A DNA stretch of 63,574 nt, from positions 1-63,574 of IMG/VR virus record IMGVR_UViG_3300048672_000387; one strand, written 5' to 3'. The notes beneath the pieces were generated by a model that worked only from the letters and a program-made list of their open reading frames with translations, did no database searches and had not been told where the DNA came from. The translations under genes and the position numbers were made by a program. This document shows positions 14,301 to 63,209 of the stretch, piece after piece. Numbering within the stretch: the stretch's first letter is position 1; every line of letters begins with the position of its first letter. This stretch comes from a virus (Duplodnaviria > Caudoviricetes).

Positions 14301-17300
14301 TTTAATATCAGTTTTATTTCTAATATTATAATCTTGAACTCCTTTTAAAATTCTAGTTATTGTAGCAGTAGGAAGAGCATTGATTTCATCAATTACTATT
14401 AATTCAGTATTTTTTAAAATATTTGATTCTAGTTTTATTATTAAATCATCTATTGATGTATTTTGAGTTGTGCCTAATGAATCATTAATAGTTTTTGTAG
14501 AATGTTCGTTATGCCCAACAGCATATACATTTTCTGTTTTTAAACCAGAAACTTTAAATAACCATTTTATTACAATAGTAGTTTTTCCAGTACCGGCATA
14601 ACCTTTCATGTAAGCAAATGTTTTTTTACCTGTTACAAAAGACATTAATTCTTTAATAGCAAATAATTGTTGATTAGAAGGAACTACTGTTTTTTCGTCC
14701 CTACTTAATTCATTTTCAGTTACAATGTCAGTTACAGGATTTGATTTTCCTTCTACAAAATTTAATAAATTATCTAAAGCTAAAACTTTTTTATGTAAGT
14801 TTAAAAAATCTTTTGTTTTAGAAACATCATATTTTATATCTTCATCTATAACAGAATTTATTAATTTTTCAAAATTTAAATCTTCTTTAAAAATATTTCT
14901 AATTCCAGGAGTAAATAAATTTTCAACAGCTGCTCTAAAAGCTAATTTAGGATTGTTTTTATAAACTCTTGTAAAAAACAATAAACTTGTAGAAATAGAA
15001 GGAATACCTATATTATTATATAAATCTATAGCTTCTTGACTTAATTTTTCTTTTAAATTATAAAGTATTTCTTTTTGCTCTTTAGACATTTGATCTTTAA
15101 GAGAAATTAAAATATTTGTAATATAACCTATTTTTTCAAAAGGTGTAAAATCTTTAATGTCTTCTAATACATTTTTACCGGTTATAATTTTTATCAAGTC
15201 AGCTAATTCAGGAATCAATACGATTTTTTTATCAAATCCTAATTCATTTAATTGACTTTCTACTTTATTATCAGTTATTCTATCTTGTTCTAATTTTCTA
15301 TTAGCTTGTCTTTCTTTTACTATTTCAATTTGTTTTTTTATTTCTTCTAGGCTATTTTTATACTCATTTATAGCATCTTTATAATCAGAATCATTTTTTT
15401 CTTCTAAAACTTTAATCATATTAGAAAGTTGTTTTTCAACAGTTTCTAGTTTTTTTAAATCTACAAAGTCTTCAGATTTAGTAGCAAATAATATACTTTT
15501 TACAATATTAGTAAACTCATTAATTAAAAGTTCTTTAATTGTTTTTTTATTAATTTCTTTTTTTTCAAATGTTTGTGTAGAATTTAATTTTTCTAAAGTT
15601 TTATTTAAATTTAATTGTTCTAAATCTATATTATCTTGAATACTAGTATCTCCATTAAGAATATTATCAGCTAATTCTACATCTTCAGGTAAAAAATTTG
15701 ACGTATCTTCATCATTCATTATAGCACCGGCTATTTCATTTATTTCATCTAATTTAGATTGTTTGACATTTATATCATTTTGAATATCATTTAAACCGTT
15801 TTCTAAAATAGATTTAGATTTTGCTGTTATAGGAATATTATCAGAAATAACATCATCTATTATTTCTGTAACGTCTTCACCATTATTTATTCTTTCTTCG
15901 AGAGATTTATTAAAAAAATCATTTTCTATATTATTACTTTTTTGTTCTAATTCTTTACTATATAAATTAGATTTTTCAAAATCATTAAATTCTTTTAAAG
16001 TAGTAGTTTCTGGATTAAATTTATTTACTTTATTAACAATAGATTTTTTCCAATCCTTATCAAAATATTTTTGACCATTTTTTACATCAGCTATTTTAGT
16101 AAATTCATCATTAAATTTAGTATTAACTTGTTCTAATTCAGATAGTTTTAAATTTAAATATTCTATTCTTTTAGATGCTAATAAAGCTGTATTAGGATCA
16201 GATTCTAATTCTGCTTTTTCTATACCAAGCCTTAAAATTTCAGATTTTACATTTGATAATGTGGTTCCAATATTATATAATTCAGATTTTCTTTTATTAT
16301 ACTTTTCAATATCTTCTTTTTTATTAGAAGAAGGTAATACATGAGCATCAATTGTTTTAGCTAATTTTAAAAACTCTTGTTTTTTAGCTTTCATTTCAGC
16401 AATCATTCGGTCTTTATTAGAAACATCTAATCCTAATTTTTCAAATTCTTCATTTGAAGTTTTAGATAAAAAATCTATTTTATCATCTAAAAGATTTTCA
16501 GTAGCTGTATCATAATGTACTTTAACCCATTCAGCTAAAGCTGCTTTTTTAGCTAAATTTGCTAGTATTTCATTTTTATTTTCCTCTCCTAAAGTAGAAA
16601 TATCATCTAAATATTCTAGTTGATTTCTTTTCATTAAAAGATTTTCAAGTTTTTCATTACTAATTGTTAAATTACCGTTAGCATCTTTTTTACGTTGTTT
16701 AACTTTAACAGTTTTACCATCTATTTCTTGATCAACTTCTTCATCTTCGTAAATATCATTAGTGTCTAACATTTTATGTAAAGAACCTAATGAAGCTAAT
16801 TTAGCGTTTCTTTTCTTTTTTTCATTATTACCATAATCAATAAATCCACTTTTAGTGCCTCCTAATCCTCCAATCAATCCTCCTAATAATATTGATTTTT
16901 GACCTTCTTCATTTGAAAAATTATTAACCCCTCTACTTCCAATACCTTTTAAAGTATTCCAATCAAATAATTCTGAATCTGGATTATTTTGAAACATGTT
17001 TTGAATAGAAGTTTGTAAATTTTCTTCTACAAATCCTTCCATAGCAATTCCTTCTAATCCTTTTAAAATAGTAGAACCTGCTTTAGTAGAAGCAAATTTA
17101 TTAAAACTTTTAATTCCGGCGCCTAAACCAGGTATTTTACTTGTTGCTAATTTACCAATATTACCAGTAATTTCAGCATCTACGGTATTTAATCCTTTTG
17201 CAGCTAATCCTTTAACAGTATTACTACTTCTTCCTACATTTTTCATCAAATTTTTCATCTGTAAAAAATTAGTACCTGATAATAATATTGCATTTGCAGC

Positions 17301-18149
17301 AAATGTTCTAGCGGCTAATGGTGCTACTTCAACATTTAATTGATGTTGTTGTTCTGGTGTAAGAGCATCAAAAGACATTCCAAATTGAGTTTGTGCTTTA
17401 TTTTCTCTTACAGTATCTCTAATATCTTTAGCTTCAAACATAGCTTCAGAAGCTGTTTGTAAAGCAGTAGCTGTAGCAATATCTATATTTCCAGCAACTT
17501 TAGCTGCTTTATTTATTATACCCATTGCAGCTAATTTAGGAGCAATTTTAGTTCCTATTTTTAAAGCACTTACACCAATTCCAGTTCCGTAAGCTGATAA
17601 TAAAAAAGAAGTAGCATCAACAGCATCACTAGCCCAAAAATCTCCATCAAAAAGATTATTAAAAACATTAACTTTATTAGCTTGTTTATCTTCTATACTA
17701 TTATATAAAGGAGTAGCATTTTCTAATTGTTTTTCTATATCAGTTGATATTTTAGCTAATCCGTTATCAGCCGCTCCAGCAATCCAAGCTGCTATATTTT
17801 GACCTATATTAGAATTTTCATTTTTATAATTTTCATTAGCATTATCAATTCCTAACAACCCTCCCAATAATCCTATTCCAGCTGTAGTTTTTAAAACAGT
17901 TTTTCCTATTAATCTTTCAGTAGCTATTCCTAAAGCATCCATTCCATTTTGATTTCTACTTCTTCTTTCTTCTACATTTTCAGTTAAAAAAGTACCTTTA
18001 TCATAATTTGAATATTCTTCTCCTAAAGAAGCAAATGATAAATCTGTTGGAGCAATGTCAGAACCTGTATTTTGTCTTTGTACTATATCATTACTTTTTG
18101 TTAAATCAAAAAGATAATTATCTAATTCGTTATTTAATTTTTTTGCCAT
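5352..18149 (-). CDS. Virion-packaged DNA-dependent RNA polymerase polyprotein (crAss-type) with SF1 helicase and zincin domains
   Basis: 4265 aa. Catalytic GSDYDVDK (~8020-8045) plus TDAQG, RIP and DNVKE motifs. Walker A GYAGTGKT (~14581-14604). HELFH (~11693-11708). N-terminal Gly/Ala-rich hydrophobic segments. Confidence 0.9.
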   Translation of the reverse strand: MAKKLNNELDNYLFDLTKSNDIVQRQNTGSDIAPTDLSFASLGEEYSNYDKGTFLTENVEERRSRNQNGMDALGIATERLIGKTVLKTTAGIGLLGGLLGIDNANENYKNENSNIGQNIAAWIAGAADNGLAKISTDIEKQLENATPLYNSIEDKQANKVNVFNNLFDGDFWASDAVDATSFLLSAYGTGIGVSALKIGTKIAPKLAAMGIINKAAKVAGNIDIATATALQTASEAMFEAKDIRDTVRENKAQTQFGMSFDALTPEQQHQLNVEVAPLAARTFAANAILLSGTNFLQMKNLMKNVGRSSNTVKGLAAKGLNTVDAEITGNIGKLATSKIPGLGAGIKSFNKFASTKAGSTILKGLEGIAMEGFVEENLQTSIQNMFQNNPDSELFDWNTLKGIGSRGVNNFSNEEGQKSILLGGLIGGLGGTKSGFIDYGNNEKKKRNAKLASLGSLHKMLDTNDIYEDEEVDQEIDGKTVKVKQRKKDANGNLTISNEKLENLLMKRNQLEYLDDISTLGEENKNEILANLAKKAALAEWVKVHYDTATENLLDDKIDFLSKTSNEEFEKLGLDVSNKDRMIAEMKAKKQEFLKLAKTIDAHVLPSSNKKEDIEKYNKRKSELYNIGTTLSNVKSEILRLGIEKAELESDPNTALLASKRIEYLNLKLSELEQVNTKFNDEFTKIADVKNGQKYFDKDWKKSIVNKVNKFNPETTTLKEFNDFEKSNLYSKELEQKSNNIENDFFNKSLEERINNGEDVTEIIDDVISDNIPITAKSKSILENGLNDIQNDINVKQSKLDEINEIAGAIMNDEDTSNFLPEDVELADNILNGDTSIQDNIDLEQLNLNKTLEKLNSTQTFEKKEINKKTIKELLINEFTNIVKSILFATKSEDFVDLKKLETVEKQLSNMIKVLEEKNDSDYKDAINEYKNSLEEIKKQIEIVKERQANRKLEQDRITDNKVESQLNELGFDKKIVLIPELADLIKIITGKNVLEDIKDFTPFEKIGYITNILISLKDQMSKEQKEILYNLKEKLSQEAIDLYNNIGIPSISTSLLFFTRVYKNNPKLAFRAAVENLFTPGIRNIFKEDLNFEKLINSVIDEDIKYDVSKTKDFLNLHKKVLALDNLLNFVEGKSNPVTDIVTENELSRDEKTVVPSNQQLFAIKELMSFVTGKKTFAYMKGYAGTGKTTIVIKWLFKVSGLKTENVYAVGHNEHSTKTINDSLGTTQNTSIDDLIIKLESNILKNTELIVIDEINALPTATITRILKGVQDYNIRNKTDIKIIGMGDPNQITSNSAFGGTIVALEDSTDPIFDNNILITPLTVRYRSNVAEVNDVQDLFIGNNRDLRKETLYLTSNSDNTLGSKGSEDKSGIEKILKTKDLNDGKTRAIIVHPSDVDFWKNKKLGVEIISYVDVQGRTIDEVYVAIDPIKIQDVVLFNKAMYTATSRATNFIFIQGLKTVNTLNDNINNSTSKNVNEIKENRETFQKNRKEEIEQLDKEIILPKTPTISLVTTVEEESIIENEEEEDVEEEIFEEPVIEEEIPIVNNNSFDLEYPHGVNISKFEENEKIIYIPVLIKGVSMIGIYVKRPEGLLEVGVLNSNEIENLKNINPSLYTSFIDSLKTPAKLKNIQDGFLEVSKTTPLIILAEGKITAFKKANFITDYENTSEFNWENIRNKIANYFSKNKKLNSKDYKIRIYTKKEIDALNTKFKPLPGVPYMVIGDTNFIKLKRKNLNKKEHSALVEPIYEFIAKYKEFTNLVSKYNLSTKDIYDIISASNLNFVLDKIKTKTGTEVKLTNKELDLIKEIDNLLHEPLSETDTKIIVGKNVKNINNPFIVEGKEVSGKVIEITNEIAKVKVKDEVLEVNVSDLKRFEKRRPGKAQHSFNLIAKGNQYSNGIIIRTTFESDGNVFSKGKNLLPKGDTKTNSEFIAEFGVLPSKKQHSLLNKYKIKYGSDFDLKNYSPEDFKNLKAIMYPTLTIEELENIFQINGLQNISDLLVPVPIVSSKENIFQDREINYTEAYISTSADNLFFEDPLQNIESSSISVTLNPPNNNSNNTPVIPTAKRKLARLEKNKNSKLGESKNINDIVSYLKKIDPTLTKEQIQFVTEAEMLILAEGIESWGLFKDGIIYLLDENGTSKLNVAKHELFHKIFDMMLTPEQKKLVYKKAVEELQLNFNSSEIEIEEALAEMYQEWKNKFKVSSFLNILFNRIKKWLGMNYTLIPSIDAFFKNIENQQFKKVINLNETTKYYNEILKDFETINNFETSQNWIIKKYDSLKEQMLDISKENLEQEQVPERNEDVYGIIYDDILDHLKELLEIKDKTEEDILNIKSLSTLSNKKIYDNMIKDLFQGNVIYTETAEGSEILGGDWTEDINDAEQTNHETNISESVKRGLSSIINKNKIVSFRFAYLTCLETLSNLNTNMDSDSLSKEINKRFAKFKKLSSRHSDVDAIQNYINTLIDYSYPINGYFKGIKVIKGYKFINENTISKIEDTGKTSYIKRNKNENNATFFNRIINLENNSNLDLQQLSILFLQKSYQNTLVELLTQVSSLYRQQVMYGEYGGGKTNYRHTLKNATKEIQRVTIVNNLITNLIENLNSNKKEILDLYYKLSKLDKSKNQDKKSTAFIEEINKTIKQTFEKMFGVSLKSSDTSTKDAIIALMSGFESFVVKEGDIEEFESQILQNFNGYMNTLADTQIVEENDLRNPNYRRIDGKTAYLFTLASQAINTLQSFVDENLFKKPSFLNSDFFKQNIFNGANINKIYRYINFDGIKKENEEGGVRYKNESETDWFRRNFKYFFLSQMSSNGKYIQQFLTISNKPNIVSAEIDFLNWDKIEKAITAILKQEESRNYKKIKYKNLNSFEKLLPKGERSIEEYSKELLNLFKNKNVNNILEIENYINTNQLKTIANKFKQKSFDTAEEQDAENIKNLGALYYANNYINSHQLNQLVAGDEAFYKNSFDVIKRMSIAFATGYKGVVSEFALPEKYKSLVVEDVKGVLGNDFVQFLKIWGKDYDITDAQGFMTPKRASELRLGFGEAFNLGSIIKPVHFEIDENGIPRAVKYSCVELTDELIKIFPQLAKIRTILEENNVDEMVFESAVKVGKPLQIAKINENNELIFNENSIITLQNENYRIQSNPEHNVEKEESAFPTQLGYFANFSGKNTEVTADLFDAQAQLMEMGRNELLSELKMQNRIEDNESGTEELIKQQDALRKKSISKQNTETDQRQNEFIANSKLGINTPFLVKKMIINLSSFFSKATVAIRIPGGGLVLQSAFGTTEYYNKEGQLIKEDLKWRDKDGYAEVVLPDFWKDKIKIGDSIMFDTMLGFRIPSTELHSAIPLKVVGYYPSNKNVIIAPGAITFFHGSDYDVDKLYVMRRSSHDSKTIYKQDGTILQEEGSMIGYKNNKLSKEWLNEVQEEMYNVLNSIHTAKNNKDIIGLKEYKNKYKALKELKVSYYKNVVVDSFLKIITDKVNEELMVSPITMDRFKGTGIETESTFDLVSRLEGFNVPKPFFENFNKKEDYNEAIKAWEKKRNEYIFKERDLYNLEEQMLMHKDNFSGTALTGVFADMAKVIAYYFQSTVDNKYPELKEAYHIEINGKTYKGFDYYENIDDIIVNYDDKGNAIKSKPTITESIDSLVNAAIDNVKEQILSIIGFTNNTGNVAVSMIAMGIPLNDIVLLMKQPIINLLNTETSFNRGYKKARTMYIENVYKLLNKNVEDVTEEDKVKINLDIENLKITNELLENIYNKPLEEMNYEDLILQLKVLTDTIRKGEMIASNIGKGKTAYSILKGFDITFDKLENVIETIDAIKLKTDKIDENTVDKTENVFENVDPIMLPHINKAFNVLKTLKSKMERLFYIHNPVLQEFSKEINSLNIFKLGNKELEAESNLRESLLQYLLSGMSYTTKEGYEINNSTLDEPEYVSSNGKTYTGTDAFNRRFTEEIFALRKANPNNKFLNNLYLNKKTKTFSFDVAKNIDQADLLKLQLDFMSLKENGQYTKLQYEFIKYAVINQGLRFGNSSYSLIIPNEMYEPLMEKYNSYFIKLSSIPNEFKTLLDQVKSNFVLQFAMNNAKKYVKYLNKEQYSKATNFSGILLNKEKFSEPEMFYTIGDTLYVKLEDSTNTEWKYANVGDFTKIKGYQFSSINLIGKYNVNIAFDSNVRTVKVSNNKEQSFTSEYKYQIGSKIRLLNYSDITRMNMIEYQIESVEENKNKTFDYTLTSPTFVNTIVSEAEIVNSQEFKKLIAEGFISEIALHKIKNNC

Positions 18150-18150
18150 T

Positions 18151-20181
18151 TTATTTAATTTTATTAATCCAATTTTTAAATTGTTCGTTATTCATTGTTA
18201 TTTGTTGACCGTTTTTAAAAAACAAATCTACAGTTCTACCATCAGATTGAAATTCCATTTCTGTTGGTTGTCTTCCATTTAAGTGTAAAGTTACTTTTTC
18301 TTTAGGATAAACACCGTAACTAAATTTAGATAATTCAGATTTAGTAGCGTTAGTTGTTTCAGCATCTAAAGGGTTAAATACAATTATTTCATTACCTCCA
18401 ACATCTAATGTATAAGCATTACCAGCAGCTTTAGCTATATTTCTATTAGAATTATAAGGATTACTACTATTTGCTGTCATTATTGAACCAGGTTCAACTT
18501 TACCACTTGTTTTAATTATAGTACCGTCAGGAATATTTAAATCTTTTAAATCTTCTTTTAAATAATCTGAAAGAGGTTTTATTTTACCGCTAATAGGATC
18601 AATTGTCATAAGTCCTTTAGCAGCATGAGTAGAAATAGTTGTTTGATCTGAACCCCCAATCAATCCTTTTACTTTTTTAAGTTCTAAACCATTTTTATTT
18701 CCAAATAATTTAAAGTTAAGTTGTTCATCAGCTTTAAGTGCGTCATATTCACCTTTAGAATTTTTAGCATTTTCTCCAAAATTTTCTATCATTTCTTGTG
18801 CGTATGATTGATCGTCTGTATTTCTTACTTTATATGCAGAACCTAATTGAATGTTTTGATCTTTCATTAACTCTGTAACAAATATTAATTCATCTGAATT
18901 TAATTTTTTATTAGAATTTAATTTATTTTGGATGCCGTATATATTAAACCCTTTTTCTCCATTAGAATTTCCATCATTTGTTCTACTCATTTCAGGAGTA
19001 GTTATTTTTTTATAAGTTTCTGGATTAATTTGTTGTAATTCTTTTAAATAAGGAATAGATAATCCTCTAACAAATAGTTTTAAAATATTATAATTTTCTT
19101 TATTGTCTTGAAATTTAGGAGTATCAGTTTTATAATCAGCAACATTTTTATTAAATCTATCTATAAATGAAGATATTGCTTTATTTTGAGGAGCTGGTAC
19201 ATTAGTACTTTCTCTTACAGATCTAACTGGTGAAGATTCATCTAAAGGTGTAAAATTAGGATCATTATAAGCTCCTAATATTTGAAAATTACCTTTATCT
19301 CCTACATTATTAACATCAAACATTGTTGACATTGAGTTAGCAGCAGCATCAACTTTTTGATGAAACATTTGTTCTCCTATTATTTTTCTTTGAATAGGAT
19401 CTTGAATACCTGCTCTATTTAAATCTCTTTCTATCATAGCTTGTATTCCTGTATGAGCTTTTCCATATTTTAACATTTCTTGTTTAAGTTCTGAAGAACT
19501 TAATTTTTCAGTTTTTCCTGAAGCATCTATTTTAGCTAAATAATCTCCTTGTTCTGGTTTAGTAGTAGGAAATCCTGTTTTTGCACTAATATATCCTAAA
19601 TGAGCAGCTTGGCCGGCTCTAGTTGTAGTTCTTACATGAGGAGCTACTTTTAAAAGTTCATTTGCTACATCAATATCTGGAGCTTCACTAAAAGAATCTA
19701 CATTTAAATTTTCTAAAGTATTATTTTCAGGATTAAATTGAGCGCTTTTTAATTGTTGATTATACATTCTTACAGCTTCTTTTCTTGAAAAATCTGATTT
19801 ATAATCTGGACTAACGGCTATTTTTTCTAAACCTTGTTGTATTTGTTTATTCCTATTACTTAGCCCTTCAAACATTCCAGCTGCATCTAAAGCATCTTGT
19901 TGTGTTTGCCAAACTATATCTTGATAATTACCAGATTTAGCTCTTTCAGTTAATCTTTTGTTATTATAATCCATTATTTGTTTAGCTGTTTCATGATCTA
20001 CTGGATTACTAGAAGCTAATAATTTTTTAGTTATTGCTCCCATTTTAGCATCATTATCCATTGAAGTATCATATCTACCTTGAATTACATTAGATGTTTT
20101 TTCTAATTGTTCTAAAGGTATTTCTTCTCCTTTTATCTGTACGTTAGGATTAACGTATGTGTCTTGAAAATTAAATGGCAT
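18151..20181 (-). CDS. Putative ejected/cargo virion protein (likely start MPFNFQ at 20181, not 20280)
   Basis: Lies immediately upstream of the RNAP gene. A TATATTTG promoter at 20197-20204 falls inside the longer ORF call. Confidence 0.65.
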   Translation of the reverse strand: MPFNFQDTYVNPNVQIKGEEIPLEQLEKTSNVIQGRYDTSMDNDAKMGAITKKLLASSNPVDHETAKQIMDYNNKRLTERAKSGNYQDIVWQTQQDALDAAGMFEGLSNRNKQIQQGLEKIAVSPDYKSDFSRKEAVRMYNQQLKSAQFNPENNTLENLNVDSFSEAPDIDVANELLKVAPHVRTTTRAGQAAHLGYISAKTGFPTTKPEQGDYLAKIDASGKTEKLSSSELKQEMLKYGKAHTGIQAMIERDLNRAGIQDPIQRKIIGEQMFHQKVDAAANSMSTMFDVNNVGDKGNFQILGAYNDPNFTPLDESSPVRSVRESTNVPAPQNKAISSFIDRFNKNVADYKTDTPKFQDNKENYNILKLFVRGLSIPYLKELQQINPETYKKITTPEMSRTNDGNSNGEKGFNIYGIQNKLNSNKKLNSDELIFVTELMKDQNIQLGSAYKVRNTDDQSYAQEMIENFGENAKNSKGEYDALKADEQLNFKLFGNKNGLELKKVKGLIGGSDQTTISTHAAKGLMTIDPISGKIKPLSDYLKEDLKDLNIPDGTIIKTSGKVEPGSIMTANSSNPYNSNRNIAKAAGNAYTLDVGGNEIIVFNPLDAETTNATKSELSKFSYGVYPKEKVTLHLNGRQPTEMEFQSDGRTVDLFFKNGQQITMNNEQFKNWINKIK

Positions 20182-44078: not shown

Positions 44079-44086
44079 CAAATTTA
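44079..44086 (-). promoter_or_regulatory. Bacteroidetes -7 promoter element
   Basis: TAAATTTG upstream of ATG 44072. Confidence 0.5.
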
Positions 44087-47000
44087 ATAATTAGAATTGA
44101 AATTACCTAATGAATCAAATTTTGTAAAAAAAGGGTCTGTATTATAAACATATTGAGGTCTATCAATAGATTTACTTTCAATTTGTTTTTGATAATACAT
44201 AGCAATTATACAAGCAGAAACCCTATCAAAATTTCCATCGTATTCAAATTTAATTAATTCTTCCAACAAAGGTACAGAATAAATCATATTTAAATTTAAT
44301 TTAATTTTACCAGATGGATCTACTCCTCTTCTACATAATAACCAATCTCTTAAATATAAACATCCTTGTTGTTTCTTTTTTAAATTAGACATAGACATTC
44401 CATATCCTCTACTTAATGAATTAGAAACTTTTTCTCCTTTATCGTAAATATCAGCTTCTTCTTGTAACCAACTTAATACTTTATTAGTTCTACAATATTG
44501 AATAACATTTCCCCTATCATTTTCAAATCCTATTTTAGCATTATAATATTTGGCAATCATTATCATAATCCTATTATATTCATCTTGACCAGCTGAAGGT
44601 CTAGCTGTATATTCAGCTACAATTAAATCGTCAGGTTGTGATATATTATTTACTTGTTTAAATACAAATAATGAACCTAAAGATTCTCCTTTTTCTGAAT
44701 CTACTCCATAAGGGTCATGTCCTATATAATATAAATTATTAGGTACTCTATTTTCTTCTTTATATGGAGCTTGATATTGAACAAAACATCCTTCTCTATC
44801 AGAATCTTTTTTAAGTGGAAAAGAATCTATTGGTTTAGCTTTATCTGAAGGATTAAATATTATTTCTCCATCTTTATCTACAAGTTCTCCACATACACCT
44901 AACGATTCATCTATTCTACTAGATTTAATATAATTAATTTGAGCTTGAAGTTCTGCTTTAGGAAATATGTTACTAGATGCTTTAATAAAGGCCTCTTTCG
45001 GCGTCCTGGGAAATTCGGCCAGCATTACATCTACTGCATTAGGATCTTTAGAAGTTCTTTTTTTATTTTCTATTTCTCCTTCAATATATATTTTAGCTTC
45101 TTCAATTTGAGATTCACCTTTTTCAGATATAAATCCACCTTTAGAATAATAATCTGGTAAAAAATAACCTATTTGAGTTAACTCCATTCCTTCTTCAAAT
45201 ACATTTTTATATGCTCTAAAGTTATAAGGTTCAGGATTATAAAACATTTCATCAAAATCTACTATACCGGCAGAGAAATCTCCACCTGTTCCAAAAGCAA
45301 AAATTTGACCTGATACTCCTAAACCTTCTTCTACTGTTGGTCTTGTTGCTGCATAGGTAGCTTTAAGGTTAGTAAAAGACCCACAATTATGCACAATTGT
45401 AAAATCAGATAATAAAAATAAATTATCTTTATCTACTGTAATTCCATAATATTCTCCTTTTCCAAAATCTTCTATTTTTATTCTAGTATTTAATGGGTTA
45501 GAGGTAGGTTCCCAGTTTACAACTTTTTTTCTTTTTATTTTAACAGGTATTTTTCTGTAATCTCCTTTTATATGTAATCTAAAATAAACTCCATTTTTTC
45601 TATATCCTTCTTTTGATTCTTTTAAAGCTAATGTAGTAGCAAAACCACAAGAGTTAGCTAAAAACTCTAAATCTTTTATAAGTCTATAATTTGCTTGAAT
45701 AATTTCGTATGAAAAAGAATGGCTGGTTCCTTTATGTAAAAATCCATCACTATCAATAAACCCAGCTAAAAGTTCTAATCTTTGTTCTAAAGAAGAAAAT
45801 TTATAAATATTAGGAATATGCTTATTACAATGTATATTTAAATCTTTAAGTAAAGTAGTAAATTTATTTTTTATTTGCGGCTTTTCTCGTAAAGTAAATG
45901 TTTTACATTTAGGTGTTTTATTACATTTATTAATTCTTAATTCTGCGTTTAATCTAGTAGCATATTCTTTTATATAGTTTTCTATTTCACAATCTGCTTC
46001 AACATTAATTACAATATTTGCTTCAGTTTTATCTCCATCACCTAACCACAACCCTAACCAATAAGGCTCAAAAGGTAATTTTTTTTCTTCAAAATGTAAC
46101 CCTGAACTTTTTATTCCGTAACTAGTTTGCTGCTTATATTTAATTAATTTTCTAAATTCACCTACTGTATATTCTTTAATACCATCATTTGTGTAACATT
46201 TATTGTTACATTTTTGTTCTAAAACAAGTTTGTGTTTACTGTTTACAACATAGTTAATTCCTTTTTGTTGTTTAACTAAATATAAATCATCTGTTCCAGT
46301 TGTAGTATTCAAAACAGTTCTTTTAGAACCATCTTTACCCATAACAAAATCTCCAATTTTAATATTTTGAATATTTTTAATAGAACCATCATACATTAAA
46401 ACTGGAGTGTCTTTTCCAAAACATTCTTCAAATAAAATAACATTAGCATCTTTACCCCTGGCAACTGAAGCATTATTTTTAGCTGTCATTGCTAACAATC
46501 TACTAAAACTTCCACTTCTTGTTTTGGTTCCATCAGCTAATACTTCTTCATAACCTGCTAATATTTCATCTTTAGGTTTATTAATTAATCTATTTTTACC
46601 AAAATCAGTATATTTCATTAAGAAATCTAAATAGCTTACAGCCATTCCCATAGTTTCTTCTGAATAATCGGATGATTCTGCTATAATAAGTGATGTAGAT
46701 TTTCTAAGAAATGTATAATTATATGCACATTTAGCTGCATTTTTATATGAATACCCTCTACGTCTAGGTTTAAGAATAATCATGTGTTGTCCAGCTTCTC
46801 TAGCTAATTCACATTCAGTAAAATAAAACCAATCACTATCCCAAAAATCTGGAAAAGTTACTAATTTTTCTACTTTCTTTTTACCTTTTAATACTTCTGA
46901 TCCAAATCCTGTTTTTAATTGTATTTGACAAAAGTTTAAATAAAAATAATGTTCTCCTGTAATACGCACTCCACCAACAGAATAACCATTTTTACAATAG

Positions 47001-47155
47001 TATTCTTGTTCATCCCAATATTTAATCCATTCATAAGAATGTTTAGGAGCATCTATATAAAATCCAACACCTGTATTTTTAAAATTTTTAAGCCATTCAT
47101 TTGCTGGCAACCTAAAATTTTCTATATTAATGTGGCTAAGATCTAACGTAAACAT
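44084..47155 (-). CDS. terL: Terminase large subunit with intein
   Basis: ITGEHYFYLN, KPRRRGYSY, Walker B ILFEE, FGTGG, nuclease GHDPY and NFDRVSA motifs. Confidence 0.92.
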   Translation of the reverse strand: MFTLDLSHINIENFRLPANEWLKNFKNTGVGFYIDAPKHSYEWIKYWDEQEYYCKNGYSVGGVRITGEHYFYLNFCQIQLKTGFGSEVLKGKKKVEKLVTFPDFWDSDWFYFTECELAREAGQHMIILKPRRRGYSYKNAAKCAYNYTFLRKSTSLIIAESSDYSEETMGMAVSYLDFLMKYTDFGKNRLINKPKDEILAGYEEVLADGTKTRSGSFSRLLAMTAKNNASVARGKDANVILFEECFGKDTPVLMYDGSIKNIQNIKIGDFVMGKDGSKRTVLNTTTGTDDLYLVKQQKGINYVVNSKHKLVLEQKCNNKCYTNDGIKEYTVGEFRKLIKYKQQTSYGIKSSGLHFEEKKLPFEPYWLGLWLGDGDKTEANIVINVEADCEIENYIKEYATRLNAELRINKCNKTPKCKTFTLREKPQIKNKFTTLLKDLNIHCNKHIPNIYKFSSLEQRLELLAGFIDSDGFLHKGTSHSFSYEIIQANYRLIKDLEFLANSCGFATTLALKESKEGYRKNGVYFRLHIKGDYRKIPVKIKRKKVVNWEPTSNPLNTRIKIEDFGKGEYYGITVDKDNLFLLSDFTIVHNCGSFTNLKATYAATRPTVEEGLGVSGQIFAFGTGGDFSAGIVDFDEMFYNPEPYNFRAYKNVFEEGMELTQIGYFLPDYYSKGGFISEKGESQIEEAKIYIEGEIENKKRTSKDPNAVDVMLAEFPRTPKEAFIKASSNIFPKAELQAQINYIKSSRIDESLGVCGELVDKDGEIIFNPSDKAKPIDSFPLKKDSDREGCFVQYQAPYKEENRVPNNLYYIGHDPYGVDSEKGESLGSLFVFKQVNNISQPDDLIVAEYTARPSAGQDEYNRIMIMIAKYYNAKIGFENDRGNVIQYCRTNKVLSWLQEEADIYDKGEKVSNSLSRGYGMSMSNLKKKQQGCLYLRDWLLCRRGVDPSGKIKLNLNMIYSVPLLEELIKFEYDGNFDRVSACIIAMYYQKQIESKSIDRPQYVYNTDPFFTKFDSLGNFNSNY
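45386..46423 (-). mobile_element. Intein (346 aa) with LAGLIDADG homing endonuclease
   Basis: Starts CFGKDTPVLMYDG and ends FTIVHN|C; internal LGLWLGDG and LAGFIDSDG blocks. Confidence 0.93.
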
Positions 47156-54332: not shown

Positions 54333-54500
54333 ATGAAAACAATCACATTAACACCAGCAGAATACATAGAATTTTGCTTGTACTACAACAATTTACCTTG
54401 GAAAAATGCTAACATGCAAGTTCAAACTACATTTCTTAAAGGTAAAGTAGAAATTACAGGTAATGAAGAATTTTTAACTAGAATGGGGTACATTGAATGA
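54333..54500 (+). CDS. Hypothetical 55-aa protein (absent from the ORF track)
   Basis: MKTITLTPAEYIEFCLYY...; same AAAACACAC-ATG context; stop overlaps the HNH start. Confidence 0.6.
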   Translation: MKTITLTPAEYIEFCLYYNNLPWKNANMQVQTTFLKGKVEITGNEEFLTRMGYIE

Positions 54501-55018
54501 GCTATTTAAATTTAAATATTGAAAATATTGAGGGTGAAATATGGAAACAATTACAAAACCCTCAATATTTTATTAGTAATAAAGGAAGACTTAAAAGTCA
54601 TTTTTTAACAAAAGATAAAATTTTAAAACAATTTATTAATAAAAAAGGATATTGTACTTATGTAATTAAAAATGTAAATACTATATTAATTCATAGATTA
54701 GTTGCTTTATATTTTATTTCTAATCCTAATAATTATCCTCAAGTAAATCATATTGATGGAAATAAAGATAATAATAAATGGAATAATTTAGAATGGTGTA
54801 CTAATCAAGAAAACCAAAATCATTCTAAATATATTTTAAAATCTATAAAAAAAGGAAAATCAATATTACAATTTACAAAAAATAACATTTTAATAAAAAA
54901 ATATATAAGTATTAGTCAAGCAAGTAAAGAAACAAAAATTAATACAAGTAATATTAACAGTTGTTGTAAAGGTAAACTTAAAACTGCTGGAAAATTTAAA
55001 TGGAAATATGAAAATTAA
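54497..55018 (+). CDS. NUMOD4-HNH-NUMOD1 homing endonuclease
   Basis: EIWK..YFISNKGR, IHRLVA, VNHIDGNKDNN..NLEWCT..EN, SISQASK..CCKGK..TAGKFKW. Confidence 0.92.
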   Translation: MSYLNLNIENIEGEIWKQLQNPQYFISNKGRLKSHFLTKDKILKQFINKKGYCTYVIKNVNTILIHRLVALYFISNPNNYPQVNHIDGNKDNNKWNNLEWCTNQENQNHSKYILKSIKKGKSILQFTKNNILIKKYISISQASKETKINTSNINSCCKGKLKTAGKFKWKYEN

Positions 55019-56753: not shown

Positions 56754-57182
56754 ATGACAAATTTAAAATTAGTATCAATTACAGAACCTAAAACAGAAAA
56801 AGAAAGATCAGATTCAAAAGTAAGCAGAATGTATTATACAGCTACTTTTAGTAATCCATTAAATCCATTTAGTAAAACAGTATCAAGAACATTTTGGCAA
56901 CAACATAATGCTGATGGTACACAAGCTACTTGGAAAGGTGCTGATCCTGTACAAGTTAGACCTTTTGTTGGTAAATTAATACCAGGTCAAATTGTTGCTG
57001 CAAATGTTGAACCTTATGAAATTGATGGTAGCACAGGTAGAATGGCTACAACATTTACATCAGTTGTATTAGATGGTGAAATTGCTGAACAAGTATTTAA
57101 AGCATCAGGTAAAATCATTGTTAAAGCTGCTAATTTAGCTATTGCTGAACAACCGGCTGTAGCTGAAAATGTACCATTTTAA
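56754..57182 (+). CDS. Putative ssDNA-binding/OB-fold protein
   Basis: Beta-rich body with a flexible tail ending ENVPF, like SSB C-tails. Confidence 0.45.
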   Translation: MTNLKLVSITEPKTEKERSDSKVSRMYYTATFSNPLNPFSKTVSRTFWQQHNADGTQATWKGADPVQVRPFVGKLIPGQIVAANVEPYEIDGSTGRMATTFTSVVLDGEIAEQVFKASGKIIVKAANLAIAEQPAVAENVPF

Positions 57183-57839: not shown

Positions 57840-58235
57840 ATGAAAACATATAAAGATGTTTATCAATTTCCATTACATTTAACAAATACTTGGATTTTTG
57901 ATAATAAAAATCAATTTGTAGCTCAATTTGAAAGACAATATGATAATAAAGGAAATTATGATAATTTATGGATGGAATTTGAATTTAAAATATTAAATTG
58001 TTTAAATGGAGTTGGAAAACATCCGTATTTAATTGATTCTGTATTTGAATATGATGTAAATAATCAACATATATATTTAAACGATGGAGAAACTAAAACT
58101 CTTATTATAACAATTAGAGGATTTGGTAATTTAGCTGGACAAAGAGGACATAATCTTTCAAATAAAGAAGCAGCTAATATTCAAGATACATTTGCTGAAT
58201 TTATAGTTAATAAATTAAATAATAAAAAAACATGA
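57840..58235 (+). CDS. Hypothetical phage protein
   Basis: IRGFGNLAG..EAANIQDTFAEFIV pattern. Confidence 0.65.
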   Translation: MKTYKDVYQFPLHLTNTWIFDNKNQFVAQFERQYDNKGNYDNLWMEFEFKILNCLNGVGKHPYLIDSVFEYDVNNQHIYLNDGETKTLIITIRGFGNLAGQRGHNLSNKEAANIQDTFAEFIVNKLNNKKT

Positions 58236-59662
58236 CAGAATTTAAACCAATAGCAATGCGTTGCAATCAACAGCAATATGCTGAAATAAAACAAATATTA
58301 ATAGATAATGGATTTAAATGTAGTTTAGACGGTACTTTTACAGAATACCCTTATTTAACTAATAATTATGATGGTAGTAAAAACAATATATGTAATTGTT
58401 TTTCTGAAAATAAAACAAATTTTAATAGAACAGTATTTGAAACATGGAATAAAGATATATTTTTAGAATATTGTGGTATTACAAATAAAAAACCAGAATT
58501 AATAGAATTACCTAATACATGGTATGTACAATTAACAGAAGATAATTTTGATATTGTTAAAAATTGGCATGAATCATTAAAACAAGGTATAATGTATCAT
58601 ATTGGAAGTTATTATGGTATGTGTAATAATAAACCAGATGCTTGGGGAAAAGAATATTTACCTAATAATACTAATGTAATTACAACTGAACAATTTAAAA
58701 AATGGGTATTAAAAGAATCTAAACCTGAATTTATTGTTGGTAAATGGTATAAATATAATGGTTGTTATATTAAACTTAAATGTATAAAAAATGGTTCATT
58801 TTTAGCTTCTGACGATATTGTTTACTCAAGATATGATGGTAAAGGAGGATATTATGGTCAAATAGATGGTTTTAAAAAAGAATATATATTATTAACAGAT
58901 TTATCAGAAATTCAACAATATTTACCTGATGGACATGTTGATAAGCAAAATAATACTTTAAATATGTATAAAATATTAGAAGAAGCTAAATTAAAATATC
59001 CTATAGGTACAAAATTTAAACCTATTAGAAGTACTGGTGAAATTTCTGATAATATTATATTACAAGAAAAAGAATGTTATTTATATAAAGATAATGAAAA
59101 TTATGAATGGGTTATAGGTTCTGATAATATTTATAATCCTGTAATAAATAAATGGGCTGAAATAATAGAATCACCTAAAACAAATACTAAATGGAAACCA
59201 CAAATAGGAGATTATGTAATTACTAAAGGTTATACAAAAGATTATGATGGTAGAATTTTAAAAATTACTAGAATAGATGGTGAATTTTATTGGTTTGATA
59301 TAACTGATAATGGCTATCATCAACCTAATGCTAATTTTGGAAAATACCATATTTTAAGAAAAGCTGAAGCACATGAAATTCCTAAAACTGAATCTTTATT
59401 AGAAAAAGTATTACATTTTACACCTGATCCTTTTCTTAGTTTACAAGGAATAGGTTATGAAACATCATTTTTTGATTCATTACCTAATAAATCATCAAAA
59501 TTAGAACAAAAAAGACAAGAAGTTTTAAATAAATTTATGTCAACATCTACAGGATTACAATTTTTAGATGAATTTGATGATAAATACCCTATAGAAACAA
59601 ATCAACCAACAACAAATAATAAACAATCAATTAATCAATTATTAAAAGTCAAATTAAATTAA
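58232..59662 (+). CDS. Multi-module protein built from ~5 small domains
   Basis: Internal modules resemble the stand-alone ORFs at 60165 and 61009. Confidence 0.7.
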   Translation: MTEFKPIAMRCNQQQYAEIKQILIDNGFKCSLDGTFTEYPYLTNNYDGSKNNICNCFSENKTNFNRTVFETWNKDIFLEYCGITNKKPELIELPNTWYVQLTEDNFDIVKNWHESLKQGIMYHIGSYYGMCNNKPDAWGKEYLPNNTNVITTEQFKKWVLKESKPEFIVGKWYKYNGCYIKLKCIKNGSFLASDDIVYSRYDGKGGYYGQIDGFKKEYILLTDLSEIQQYLPDGHVDKQNNTLNMYKILEEAKLKYPIGTKFKPIRSTGEISDNIILQEKECYLYKDNENYEWVIGSDNIYNPVINKWAEIIESPKTNTKWKPQIGDYVITKGYTKDYDGRILKITRIDGEFYWFDITDNGYHQPNANFGKYHILRKAEAHEIPKTESLLEKVLHFTPDPFLSLQGIGYETSFFDSLPNKSSKLEQKRQEVLNKFMSTSTGLQFLDEFDDKYPIETNQPTTNNKQSINQLLKVKLN

Positions 59663-60164: not shown

Positions 60165-60434
60165 ATGGAACAATTAATTAAAGGACAATGGTATAAAAGA
60201 ACAGATGTAATACTTGAAAATTATTTAAAATATATTAAACCTATAAAATTAGATTTACAAAATAATGAATTTAAATATATTTATTCTATATATGAAACAA
60301 AAGGATATTTAAATAATAATAAAATAAAAATTTGTACAGCTAATAATTTTATACCAATAGATATATCAGAAATAGCTCATTTATTACCTAAAAATCATTC
60401 AGATTTATTAAACAAAATATATGAATTATGGTAA
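60165..60434 (+). CDS. Small protein of the YELW-tail family
   Basis: Ends KIYELW*. Confidence 0.7.
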   Translation: MEQLIKGQWYKRTDVILENYLKYIKPIKLDLQNNEFKYIYSIYETKGYLNNNKIKICTANNFIPIDISEIAHLLPKNHSDLLNKIYELW

Positions 60435-60481
60435 TTCGTTAAATAAATTAAAACAAAACAATTAAAAATAAAATAAAAATC

Positions 60482-60958
60482 ATGGCAAAAAAAGAAACAA
60501 CAGCAGTAGCAACAGTAGGTTCAGGAATTGAATTAACACCAGCAAATGTAACATCAACTATTAATGATTTAAAAGCTAAATTACAATCATTAAGAAGTTC
60601 AGCACCAGAAGCAGTATCATTAGATATTGATTATAATGGTACAACAATTAAAAATGTAACTAAAGTATCAGAATTATTAGAAATTTCTGCATCAATTCAT
60701 GCTAGATCAGCAGCTTATGATGCTGAAATTGAAAGATTTAACCTTAAAGGTAAAGTAAAAGCTTTTAGTCATTCAGAAAAAACAGTAGCTCAATGGGAAG
60801 AAATTATTGAAAAAGCTATATTTGAGCTTGTTAATAAAAAACAAATTGAGCAAATTGAAAGTGCTATTAAGAAACTTTCTAAATTTGAAGATGAAAAAAC
60901 TCAACTTCAAAGAGAATTTGATAGCATTGTAGGTAATGCTTCAGAATTATTATCATAA
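60482..60958 (+). CDS. Coiled-coil protein
   Basis: Helical 158-aa ORF with A-rich start region. Confidence 0.7.
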   Translation: MAKKETTAVATVGSGIELTPANVTSTINDLKAKLQSLRSSAPEAVSLDIDYNGTTIKNVTKVSELLEISASIHARSAAYDAEIERFNLKGKVKAFSHSEKTVAQWEEIIEKAIFELVNKKQIEQIESAIKKLSKFEDEKTQLQREFDSIVGNASELLS

Positions 60959-60964
60959 TTAACT

Positions 60965-61002
60965 AAGTCCTGTCTATTAATTTAGGCAGGACTTTAATTT
61001 TT
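60965..61002 (+). terminator. Intrinsic terminator
   Basis: AAGTCCTGTCTA-ttaatt-TAGGCAGGACTT followed by a T-rich tail. Confidence 0.75.
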
Positions 61003-61008
61003 AAAAAT

Positions 61009-61236
61009 ATGAATAAAAAAGAAATTTTAAAAATTGCTAAACAAAAATATCCTATTGGATGTGTAATTGATAGTTTAGGAGGTTGTTATAATTATAAACT
61101 TGATGAAAAAATGTATATTGAACATCCTATAAAATGGTCAAATCAAGATATTTGTGGATATGGAGTTACTTTATACAATAACGGTAAATGGGCAAAAATA
61201 ATAAGTACACCAATTAAATGTTATGAATTATGGTAA
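61009..61236 (+). CDS. Small protein of the YELW-tail family
   Basis: Ends KCYELW*; AKQKYPIG module. Confidence 0.7.
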   Translation: MNKKEILKIAKQKYPIGCVIDSLGGCYNYKLDEKMYIEHPIKWSNQDICGYGVTLYNNGKWAKIISTPIKCYELW

Positions 61237-61439
61237 CAGAAAAAGATTTATATACTGGATTACAATTTAAACATATAAAAGATAAAAATACTATATATTC
61301 TTTAGATTTAACTAAACAAGAAAATATTATTTGGTATAATGGAGATGTAAGATTTTCTATACAAGCTATATGTGATAATATTAATAGTGGTGTTTGGAAA
61401 TTAGTTAAACCTATTAATAAAATATATGAAACATGGTAA
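61230..61439 (+). CDS. Small protein of the YELW-tail family
   Basis: Ends KIYETW*. Confidence 0.7.
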   Translation: MVTEKDLYTGLQFKHIKDKNTIYSLDLTKQENIIWYNGDVRFSIQAICDNINSGVWKLVKPINKIYETW

Positions 61440-61690
61440 ATAACTTTCCAACAGTAGGGTATACAGAATTTAATAAAATTGTATATGATAAACTAAAATA
61501 TTTATATAAATTAAAAAATTTAGATTTAAAAGATTTTGATTATTATAATAAAATACCTAAAAAATATATTGCTTGGAATATGAGCCAAAATACCGGATTT
61601 GTTGATTTATATTTTTGTAATAAAAGCGCTAAAACGTATTATACTTTAGAACAATTAATGTTAACAGAAAGGATTTACGAATTATGGTAG
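61433..61690 (+). CDS. Small protein of the YELW-tail family
   Basis: Ends RIYELW*. Confidence 0.7.
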   Translation: MVNNFPTVGYTEFNKIVYDKLKYLYKLKNLDLKDFDYYNKIPKKYIAWNMSQNTGFVDLYFCNKSAKTYYTLEQLMLTERIYELW

Positions 61691-62946
61691 ATCAAAATAG
61701 TCCAAGAACTTTATGGCAAAAACAAGTTATAAATAAATGGATAAATAATTGTAAAGCAAGAGGTTACACTGAAATTTGTACTGGAGCTGGTAAAAGTTAT
61801 ATTGGTATTTTAGCTATTAAATTGTGTAATGAAAGACATTCAACTAAACAAATAAATGTAATTGTTCCGACCACTGTATTAAAAGAAGCCTGGACTGATG
61901 AAAAAAAAGGACATATTAAATTACATAATTTAAAAAATGTAAATGTTTATGTAGTAAATACTTATGTAAAAACTAAACATGAATGTGCTTTGTTATTGTT
62001 AGATGAATGTCAACATTATACTAATGAAAACTCTAAAACTTTTAATAAAGTAATTGCTAATACTACATTTAATTGGATATTATGTTTAACTGCTACTTTA
62101 GAAAAAGAACATAAAGATTTTCTTAATGCTAGAAATATTACATTAATTGAAAAGTTTACAGCTCAACAAGGTGTAGATGCAGGTTGGTTAAGTCCTTATA
62201 AAGTTTTATGTGTACCTATTGAATTAGATGAATCTGATAGAGAAAGGTATGAAACTTTAAACAAAAATTATTACAAATACGGAAGTCCTTTTAGTAATGG
62301 TTATTCTATTGATTTTAAAGTAGCAATGGCGTGTATGAAAAAAGGAGAAACTTTAACTAATTATGCAAATTCTTTAAAATGGGAAGAACAAAAACTTAAA
62401 ATCATGGCTATTCAATGGAATTTAGCTATGCAACAAAGAAAACAATTTCTTTACCATATAGAATCTAAAATAAATGCTGCTATTGAAATTACTAAAAAAC
62501 TTCAAATGCAATCTATACTTTTTGGTCAATCTATTGTTGGTGCAGATAAAATATCTGAAGCATTAGGTGATGAATGTGTTAAATATCATTCTAAAATGAC
62601 TAAAAAACAAGCTAAAGAAAATCTAAAAAAGTTAAAAGATGGTAGAACTAAAGTAAAATATATATCTTCAGCTAAAGGATTAGAAGAAGGTTTTGATTTA
62701 CCAAATCTTCAATTAGGTATAACTTGGAGTCGTACTTCTAAAGCTCTTAGAGCTACTCAAATTACAGGAAGGTTACTTAGATATTACCCAGGTAAAATAG
62801 CTTATATGATAGAGCTTTATGTGCCAGCTACACAAGATTTGAAATGGCTTCAAACTTCACTTAAAGGACAAAAGAATGTTTTTTGGTTATCTAACATAGA
62901 CCAAGTATATCAAATAATTAACCAAGATAAAGAAAAACTAATATGA
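61684..62946 (+). CDS. Superfamily 2 DExH helicase (ResIII/XPB-like)
   Basis: CTGAGKS, LLLDECQH, LTATL, EEGFDLP and QITGRLLR motifs. Confidence 0.9.
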   Translation: MVDQNSPRTLWQKQVINKWINNCKARGYTEICTGAGKSYIGILAIKLCNERHSTKQINVIVPTTVLKEAWTDEKKGHIKLHNLKNVNVYVVNTYVKTKHECALLLLDECQHYTNENSKTFNKVIANTTFNWILCLTATLEKEHKDFLNARNITLIEKFTAQQGVDAGWLSPYKVLCVPIELDESDRERYETLNKNYYKYGSPFSNGYSIDFKVAMACMKKGETLTNYANSLKWEEQKLKIMAIQWNLAMQQRKQFLYHIESKINAAIEITKKLQMQSILFGQSIVGADKISEALGDECVKYHSKMTKKQAKENLKKLKDGRTKVKYISSAKGLEEGFDLPNLQLGITWSRTSKALRATQITGRLLRYYPGKIAYMIELYVPATQDLKWLQTSLKGQKNVFWLSNIDQVYQIINQDKEKLI

Positions 62947-63209
62947 TAGAAATAAATAAATATTATTTAACTAAAAGATCTACTCAAGATTTAATTAAAA
63001 TTGTAAGCATTGAAAAAGAAAATTTAAAAGTTATTTATATAGGCTATGAACATATAGGAATATGTAATTTAAATAAAGATTTTGTAATTGTTAAGTCAAT
63101 AGAAGGAATAGATTTATTAAATGAATATTTAAATTTTAAAATAAAAAGTTTTAATTTATTGTTATTAAGTCAATTAAAAGAATTAAAAATAAAACAATGC
63201 AAGAATTAA
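62943..63209 (+). CDS. Hypothetical protein
   Basis: ORF overlapping the helicase stop. Confidence 0.55.
   Translation: MIEINKYYLTKRSTQDLIKIVSIEKENLKVIYIGYEHIGICNLNKDFVIVKSIEGIDLLNEYLNFKIKSFNLLLLSQLKELKIKQCKN

Follow-up and report, generated by a model that had tools for sequence, protein, structure and literature searches.

Four dissimilar small proteins of a virus end in the same short peptide, and in three of the four cases the DNA that encodes this peptide also supplies the start codon of the next gene. The four genes lie between positions 60165 and 61690 of IMG/VR record IMGVR_UViG_3300048672_000387; all 63,574 nucleotides (nt) of the record were analysed and are called the window here. 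The best reading we have is that the shared end is a recognition tag, read as a free C-terminus and reused as a coupling start and as a recombination joint, and we give this reading about an even chance. On this reading the tag is specific to the lineage and follows the folded domain in five or more unrelated families of small proteins, all in the early/accessory region of a divergent clade of crAss-like phages. The open reading frames (ORFs) and sites concerned are as follows (aa, amino acids).

60165–60434, + strand: ORF1, 89 aa; a GxWYK...LPxxH module and the tail NKIYELW (tail codons 60414–60434)
60428–60442, + strand: mini-ORF, ATG GTA ATT CGT TAA, opened by the ATG of the ORF1 tail
60482–60958, + strand: protein of 158 aa, without a Pfam or PHROG family
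60965–60994, + strand: terminator-like hairpin, 12 pairs followed by a T-run, between the ORF1/158-aa unit and the ORF3-ORF4-ORF5-helicase chain
61009–61236, + strand: ORF3, 75 aa; an N-terminal helix and a small beta-barrel (KYPIG...GKWAKII) with the appended tail TPIKCYELW
61230–61439, + strand: ORF4, 69 aa; a member of the GxQFK...TIY family with the tail NKIYETW; its start is the ATG within the ORF3 tail
61433–61690, + strand: ORF5, 85 aa; tail ERIYELW; starts at the ATG inside the ORF4 tail
61684–62946, + strand: helicase of superfamily 2 with ResIII and Helicase_C domains (PF04851, PF00271; phrog_16); its start ATGGTAG lies within the ORF5 tail

An earlier note on this DNA had described four small ORFs with a common Y-E-[LT]-W end, and the endings NKIYELW, IKCYELW, NKIYETW and ERIYELW are present in the sequence. 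Its account of the starts also agrees with what we see: the ORFs that begin at 61230, 61433 and 61684 (the helicase) each have their first ATG in ATGGTAA or ATGGTAG, the ORF1 end is overlapped by no real gene, and the ATG at 60428 opens just the mini-ORF. So does the synonymous variation it listed (TAT three times and TAC once; ATA and ATT; TAA three times and TAG once). The 15-nt tail pattern TAYGAANNNTGGTAR occurs four times on the + strand and not at all on the − strand, all four copies lie within 1.3 kb, and no further copy was found elsewhere in the 63.5-kb record. In 100 dinucleotide-preserving shuffles the mean count was 0.03 and no shuffle reached four.

Conservation of the tail and the bodies that carry it

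The related contigs are the window, G001 (of which L015 is a part), L025, L026 and L027. A scan of IMG/VR with tail DNA returned the syntenic contig L015 and, from an unrelated phage, the fragment L014, which has just one tail; L015 was also the sole match to a back-translated ISASIxARSAAY pattern. L025, L026 and L027 were found by a metagenome scan with the 158-aa neighbour. Over the six contigs, 22 of 207 crude genes end in E-[LIVT]-W (window 4, G001 5, L025 2, L026 1, L027 9 and L014 1). Within the five related contigs such ends close 21 of 181 crude genes, against 0.045 expected, and the same motif occurs internally 11 times, against 8.95 expected; the tail is enriched at true C-termini only. 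None of the 103 genes of a control, Flavobacterium phage Fpv1 (crAss-like and equally AT-rich, 27% G+C), carries it.

The consensus is N-K-I-[Y/H]-E-[L/I/V]-W. Glu and Trp are found in all 22 tails, Ile in 16, Lys in 15 and Leu in 13. Every stand-alone homolog of the four window families keeps the tail, even at 25–40% identity, so that orthologs without it, which the earlier note had named as a sign against its reading, were not encountered. In the ORF5 family 6/6 members end in [YFI]-E-[LIV]-W at 40–81% identity. All nine stand-alone members of the ORF3 family, whose middle is highly variable, end in E-[LIV]-W, the four stand-alone ORF1 homologs all end in NKIYELW, and the ORF4 family ends in E-[LIVT]-W throughout (4/4; relatives' ends KIYELW, VIEIW and IKEVW). 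Glu and Trp are invariant inside each family even at a body identity of 25–50%, and the tail variants do not follow family. As a second sign against its reading the earlier note had named conservation limited to the ATGGTAA overlap, with the Tyr and Glu positions free to vary. This was not seen either: Glu does not vary in any of the 22 tails, although conservation at the Tyr position is only partial (Y 11, H 4, I 2, T 2, K 2, R 1).

The tail genes form chains, of up to five mini-genes, linked head to tail through the start codon in nnA TGG TAR. The longest chain, five consecutive tail genes, lies at 18967–20324 of L027. Directly upstream of it L027 encodes a NAMPT-type phosphoribosyltransferase of nicotinamide adenine dinucleotide (NAD) salvage (17573–18970), whose gene end is overlapped by the chain's first gene by 4 nt; a cytidylyltransferase-like and NUDIX protein (16010–16864), likewise counted to NAD salvage, also lies upstream of the chain.

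A first IMG/VR scan with tail DNA gave 18 loci, two of which are real ORF ends. A broader scan gave at least 118 matches and at least 14 real ORF ends, including those of a terminase and of a structural family. Among the matches listed no locus had a second tail, so multi-tail arrays were not found outside this lineage. In L014 the single tail belongs to an 88-aa gene (9369–9635, − strand) that ends in DKIYELW and is coupled to the next gene by ATGGTAA; it may be a transferred cassette. By eye, the largest ORFs of L014 resemble a family-A DNA polymerase and a DnaB-type helicase. Literature searches, supplements aside, brought to light no report of this kind of C-terminal tail among phages.

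The earlier note had called the four proteins dissimilar, and profile comparison bears this out. When the family alignments of ORF3 (A4), ORF4 (A5) and ORF5 (A2) were compared by hhalign, the last 6–11 columns alone aligned, with a probability of 12–16%. The AlphaFold2 (AF2) model of ORF3, with a predicted local distance difference test score (pLDDT) of 78, has a helix and six short strands; the last strand ends at residue 66, and residues 67–75, the tail, are a lower-confidence coil. The ORF5 model (pLDDT 64.5) is strand-helix-helix-strand-strand, and its residues 78–85 have a pLDDT below 50. In both models the tail lies beyond the last secondary-structure element. The window tail proteins have no match in Pfam or PHROGs, nor do the ten L027 tail proteins in Pfam. 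With the ORF3 model, Foldseek found nothing in the PDB at E ≤ 0.001; in BFVD the best matches (E 0.019–0.064) belong to Cellulophaga and Nonlabens phages and are uncharacterised. The Atlas gave no usable match for ORF3.

The ORF3-type domain (KYPIGT...G-W-A-x-I-I) also occurs as a repeated module in long proteins, 120 of which were returned by a profile search. A hidden Markov model of six stand-alone members found 198 modules in these proteins, 148 of them reaching the model end. At the projected position E-x-W is present in 0/146 internal and 0/2 C-terminal modules, and the sequence past ...IIS-x-P is linker-like. Because no internal module carries the tail and the AF2 model shows it as coil, the tail is outside the folded domain, at least in the ORF3-type family. 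The window itself encodes a protein of this modular kind:

58232–59662, + strand: multi-module protein of 476 aa; ORF1-type module at ∼58736–58975 and ORF3-type module at ∼58952–59230, neither with an E-x-W tail

This protein has an internal VFETW at residues 68–72, possibly a fused former tail. Long proteins with ORF3-type modules (P0017, P0046, P0032) sometimes also have MIB_HERC2 or DUF3310 domains. In ORF3-type genes the 5' and 3' ends are conserved and the middle is hypervariable, both in the DNA of close relatives and in database homologs; such a variable middle would be in keeping with a binding surface that evolves fast.

Peptide, start codon and cassette boundary

Among the 22 tails Glu is encoded by GAA in 19 and by GAG in three, and Asp never takes its place. 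The Leu codon may be TTA, CTA or CTT and the Ile codon ATA, ATT or ATC; both TAA and TAG serve as stop. A 7-nt overlap with a downstream ORF that starts with Met-Val is found in 15 of the 22 tails of the six contigs and in three of the four window tails, which extends to relatives the earlier note's claim that tail DNA serves as an overlapping start. The other seven tails have no gene in an overlapping ATGGTAR. Five of these have a codon ending in C or T before Trp and therefore no ATG, and E-x-W is kept in all five; the L025 ortholog of ORF1, for instance, has no tail ATG because its Leu codon is CTT. Downstream of the seven there are three TAATG overlaps, and the rest have spacers of 16–119 nt; one of the seven, at 9368 in L015, runs into a decayed cassette. 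Since orthologs keep the tail, codons vary synonymously and the tail persists without an overlapping ATG, these comparisons point to selection of the tail as a peptide, as the earlier note had proposed, and the start codon would have come along opportunistically with nnA-TGG-TAR.

In the tail alignment nothing is conserved past the K...stop codons, and no Shine-Dalgarno-like purine run stands ahead of the overlapping ATG. ORF5 orthologs start at an aligned Met, and the junction RNA is unstructured (z −0.73 to +0.81). Other coupled genes of the window have plain 4-nt overlaps, which sets the tail junction apart as a distinct class.

Several other roles for the motif were considered and rejected. 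A frameshift fusion of the chain was set aside because TTA TGG TAA is no slippery site, and reassignment of the stop codon because long ORFs are intact under table 11. The (L/I)xE sites of the T4 prohead protease belong to the wrong protein end and the wrong genome region. An outer-membrane beta-signal or a PDZ ligand was dropped because Y and W, with a spacing of three residues, do not alternate, and because no signal peptide is obvious by eye. A RegA-like operator or a promoter does not explain why the motif is always in frame at the C-terminus.

Comparison of the relatives brought out the third property of the tail. L026 is without ORF1 and is 82% identical to the window from 60428 onward. 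Its junction reads ...CTCCTATCAGAAATG|GTAATTCGTTAA, also given as ...CAGAAATG|GTAATTCG, and its two halves correspond to the window's hairpin loop upstream of ORF1 and to the sequence right after ORF1's ...TTATG. An identical 17-nt junction is found in L026 and at the ORF5/helicase joint of the window. Up to the point where one cassette has its start codon, L015 and L027 share 94.8% identity, and they are alike again from ATGAACTATGGTAG; the bodies between, a 71-aa ORF4-type protein and an 86-aa protein of alpha/beta type, are unrelated. L027 has an additional ORF3-type cassette exactly between two joints. At 9368–9500, L015 has a decayed ORF3-type cassette (MVEITREEIIQKIKKNYPIGY-stop ... GKFVSIINQNKVYKLW-stop) that still has both flanking joints and has Lys instead of Glu in its tail. 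What follows the ORF3-type gene differs between contigs: an ORF4-type gene in the window, a gene of alpha/beta type in L025 and L015, an ORF1-type gene in L026 and an ORF3-type gene in L027.

Contigs from public sequencing runs were compared with the window at ≥80% likeness; no RNA runs are among the 19 public runs listed. In run X2 one contig links 61439 directly to 61688 (side 219), so that ORF5 is missing there; X3 has a weaker joint (side 27) from 61421 to 61674. A second contig of X2 has the window's 51 nt between 60433 and 60485 replaced by ∼0.93 kb and ceases to match at 61235. Given this insertion, the mini-ORF at 60428 is probably the scar of a lost downstream cassette; its sequence, ATGGTAATTCGTTAA, persists in L026, which is without ORF1. 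Loose contig ends fall at 61234 (X1) and just before 61684 (X2). Altogether the endpoints of similarity lie at 60428–60434, 61234–61236, 61421–61439 and 61674–61690 and at the L015/L027 joints. Contigs of all four runs also join 62934 to 63196, skipping 261 nt (window 62935–63195), which makes a further small gene a presence/absence cassette as well:

62943–63209: small ORF after the helicase, 88 aa; no Trp tail

At the level of sequence comparison, then, relatives differ by whole cassettes with breakpoints inside the tail/ATGGTAR joint. The earlier note had seen the tail as a boundary of swappable cassettes, and several independent insertions, deletions or replacements do end within tail/ATGGTAR.

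A proposed recognition tag and competing explanations

If the tail is a recognition tag, a single partner common to all carriers would recognise it as a free C-terminal peptide. That partner might be a docking site, or else a machine for proteolysis or other quality control that belongs to the phage or to its Bacteroidota-type host. Downstream cistrons would be translated by termination-reinitiation, and the shared 11–15 nt would let cassettes exchange in frame. A candidate for the partner is the 158-aa protein. It is the only non-tail module gene conserved in all relatives found (51–73% identity), and it adjoins tail genes in all five contigs. Its look-alikes in the Atlas are viral hypothetical proteins only, and a predicted complex of its family (A6) with the ORF3 family (A4), run without folded controls, scored 0.00 and weighs neither for nor against such a contact. 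In L015 a terminator-like hairpin stands directly after the 172-aa homolog of this protein, as in the window, and no terminator-like site was found inside the ORF3-helicase chain.

Several points weigh against a recognition tag. Two further orthologs end in KEIWF, one residue past Trp, at operon ends before terminators, and with these variants a strict need for a terminal Trp carboxylate fits poorly. Each of the 22 tail genes is followed on its own strand by a gene or by the remnant of a cassette, which makes a role of the tail in downstream translation inseparable from one in the finished protein. In the ORF3-type module of the 476-aa protein TKW aligns with the tail ELW, Trp on Trp, and a structural role for Trp in the ORF3-type family keeps some small probability on this alignment. 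The AF2 alignments are shallow (5–6 rows), so the low confidence of the tail is weak evidence of disorder. The relatives amount to five contigs and to database proteins seen as protein only, without DNA, and the gene calls are crude (longest non-overlapping ORFs). The docking or degron step itself is one that we infer.

The tail could instead be a cis-acting translational device. The nascent tail, or the RNA GAA-nnA-UGG-UAR, or both, would slow or shape termination so that the ribosome re-initiates, and the finished protein would need no tail. This would suit a host whose ribosomes ignore Shine-Dalgarno sequences, and according to PMC6847099 Bacteroidetes ribosomes make no use of them and an A at −3 favours initiation in Flavobacterium johnsoniae; GAA places A at −3 and −4. 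The 7-nt overlaps in 15 of 22 tails, the unstructured junction RNA, the gene or remnant behind every tail gene and the contrast with the window's plain 4-nt overlaps all speak for such a device. Yet five of the seven uncoupled tails have kept E-x-W without any ATG, three of the seven use TAATG and the others have their 16–119-nt spacers, and the KEIWF variants sit ahead of terminators. Lys, Gln and other nnA codons would give A at −3 equally, but Glu is present 22 times out of 22, sometimes as GAG, and most other genes of these phages are coupled without such a tail. We therefore regard a purely translational role as unlikely.

The breakpoints suggest another possibility, that the joint is inherited by descent: cassettes would have spread by duplication and exchange at a shared junction, and the peptide would be functionless. 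At least five indel or replacement events have breakpoints within tail/ATGGTAR, joints still border tandem ORF3-type copies and a decayed one, and the 17-nt junction of L026 recurs at ORF5/helicase. Neutral descent, however, would erode Glu and Trp, which are invariant at 25–50% body identity, and variation in the joint is biased towards synonymous changes (GAA/GAG, TTA/CTA/CTT, TAT/TAC, ATA/ATT/ATC). The modest DNA identity outside GAA-nTn-TGG-TAR makes a poor substrate for homology-driven exchange, and selection for intact genes after random recombination also leaves breakpoints at gene ends. A functionless joint is thus quite unlikely in our view. A structural reading, in which the tail is built into one ancient small fold as its last strand or a capping Trp and the proteins are very divergent paralogs, seems to us highly improbable. 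The proteins are all small and beta-rich or alpha/beta, and the Trp-on-Trp alignment in the 476-aa protein would fit; but hhalign similarity is confined to the tail, the models differ in the order of their secondary-structure elements (helix plus six strands in ORF3, strand-helix-helix-strand-strand in ORF5) and place the tail past the last predicted element, and tail variants are independent of family. Nor do the modules in other proteins carry it, neither the 146 internal and two terminal ORF3-type modules nor the internal ORF1-type module of the 476-aa protein.

A bolder version of the recognition tag carries the label plug-and-play. The tail would recruit any small effector domain to one hub, a host machine or the 158-aa protein, and the same 15–21 nt would be re-initiation start and in-frame homologous joint for the shuffling of cassettes by co-infecting phages. 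We consider this version tentative and, on balance, doubtful. If true, it would be a protein-level analogue of the integron, in which a multi-domain protein is run as separately evolvable pieces. Should the tail be a recognition tag, it would offer a one-step handle on a whole set of crAss-like phage ORFan proteins, the common hub could be named from a single peptide, and further members could be recognised in metagenomes. The array is a clean natural example of a short sequence that is apparently selected as peptide, as start codon and as cassette boundary, and of modules, fused elsewhere in long repeat proteins, that are separately exchangeable genes. It bears on the fast diversification of phage accessory regions in hosts without Shine-Dalgarno-based initiation.

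Genomic setting and known systems

The window is a whole IMG/VR virus record, linear, with 25.6% G+C and an estimated completeness of 71%. Its major head, portal and large-terminase proteins match the PHROG head, portal and large-terminase families, and the head and portal proteins have ∼25–36% identity with their counterparts in crAss-like phages of Bacteroides and Flavobacterium; judged by these matches, the virus is a divergent crAss-like phage. The tail-gene array lies in an opposite-strand early/accessory block that leads into the helicase. Other features of the window are:

5352–18149: ORF of 4265 aa, within the structural block
44084–47155: large terminase, 1022 aa, unusually long; best PHROG match split into two stretches
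54497–55018: HNH endonuclease with NUMOD domains, in the early region

ARAGORN found no tRNA genes near 56.6 kb. A 142-aa protein (56754–57182) without a match in Pfam or PHROG has the C-terminus ...AEQPAVAENVPF (ENVPF). This end resembles the tails of single-stranded DNA-binding protein (SSB) more than the Trp tail does.

Searches for relatives of the locus were mostly negative. Among GenBank phages there was none for the 5.6-kb locus DNA or the 158-aa protein, and a single weak match for one ORF3-type protein. A search of IMG/VR for related loci confirmed no relatives, whether it started from the helicase, from the ORF5 family or from the 158-aa family, and a search of genome contigs found none.

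Short C-terminal tails that bind a hub are known from the SSB C-terminus (SSB-Ct, ...D-I-P-F), from T7 gp2.5 and gp4, whose acidic tails end in Phe, and from the clamp-binding C-termini of T4 gp43, gp33 and gp55. The tail described here resembles them as a short, extreme C-terminal peptide with an aromatic end after an acidic residue, confined to the C-terminus of unrelated proteins and placed outside the fold, as seen for the ORF3 type and by a weak model only for ORF5. Its carriers, however, are ORFan mini-proteins and not replication enzymes, and its sequence differs. The SSB-Ct signature is an acidic run followed by I/L-P-F and the bacterial clamp motif is Q-L-[SD]-L-F; the tail has no acidic run, no Pro or Pro-Phe, and no Gln-Leu-x-Leu-Phe pattern, with no Gln at the first position (Gln stands at −5 in 2/22). 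Among degrons, ssrA-like tags are protease-recognition sequences of the terminal L-A-A type, and RRKKAI represents another class; the tail resembles neither LAA nor RRKKAI. It also does not behave as a fold-intrinsic element of paralogs, given bodies without similarity and 0/148 long-protein modules with the tail. The McdB proteins that position carboxysomes reportedly have an invariant C-terminal Trp and so share an invariant terminal Trp on otherwise divergent proteins, but they are cellular, form a single protein family and show no gene overlap or cassettes.

Overlapping coupled genes (ATGA or TAATG) share with the array the same-strand overlap of stop and start (7 nt in 15/22 tails, TAATG in three more), the formation of chains and an unstructured junction RNA. 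The array differs in that its 7-nt overlap, ATGGTAR, is dictated by the conserved terminal Trp, and in that a six-residue upstream peptide is conserved and persists without the overlap. Lambdoid phages have mosaic boundary or linker sequences at gene junctions, and there, as here, the similarity of relatives starts or stops at a short conserved gene-end sequence. The boundary of the present array, by contrast, is coding, in frame and apparently peptide-selected, with up to nine or more repeats per 20 kb. The nearest known kinds are these three: hub-binding C-terminal tails, overlapping coupled genes and phage mosaic boundaries.

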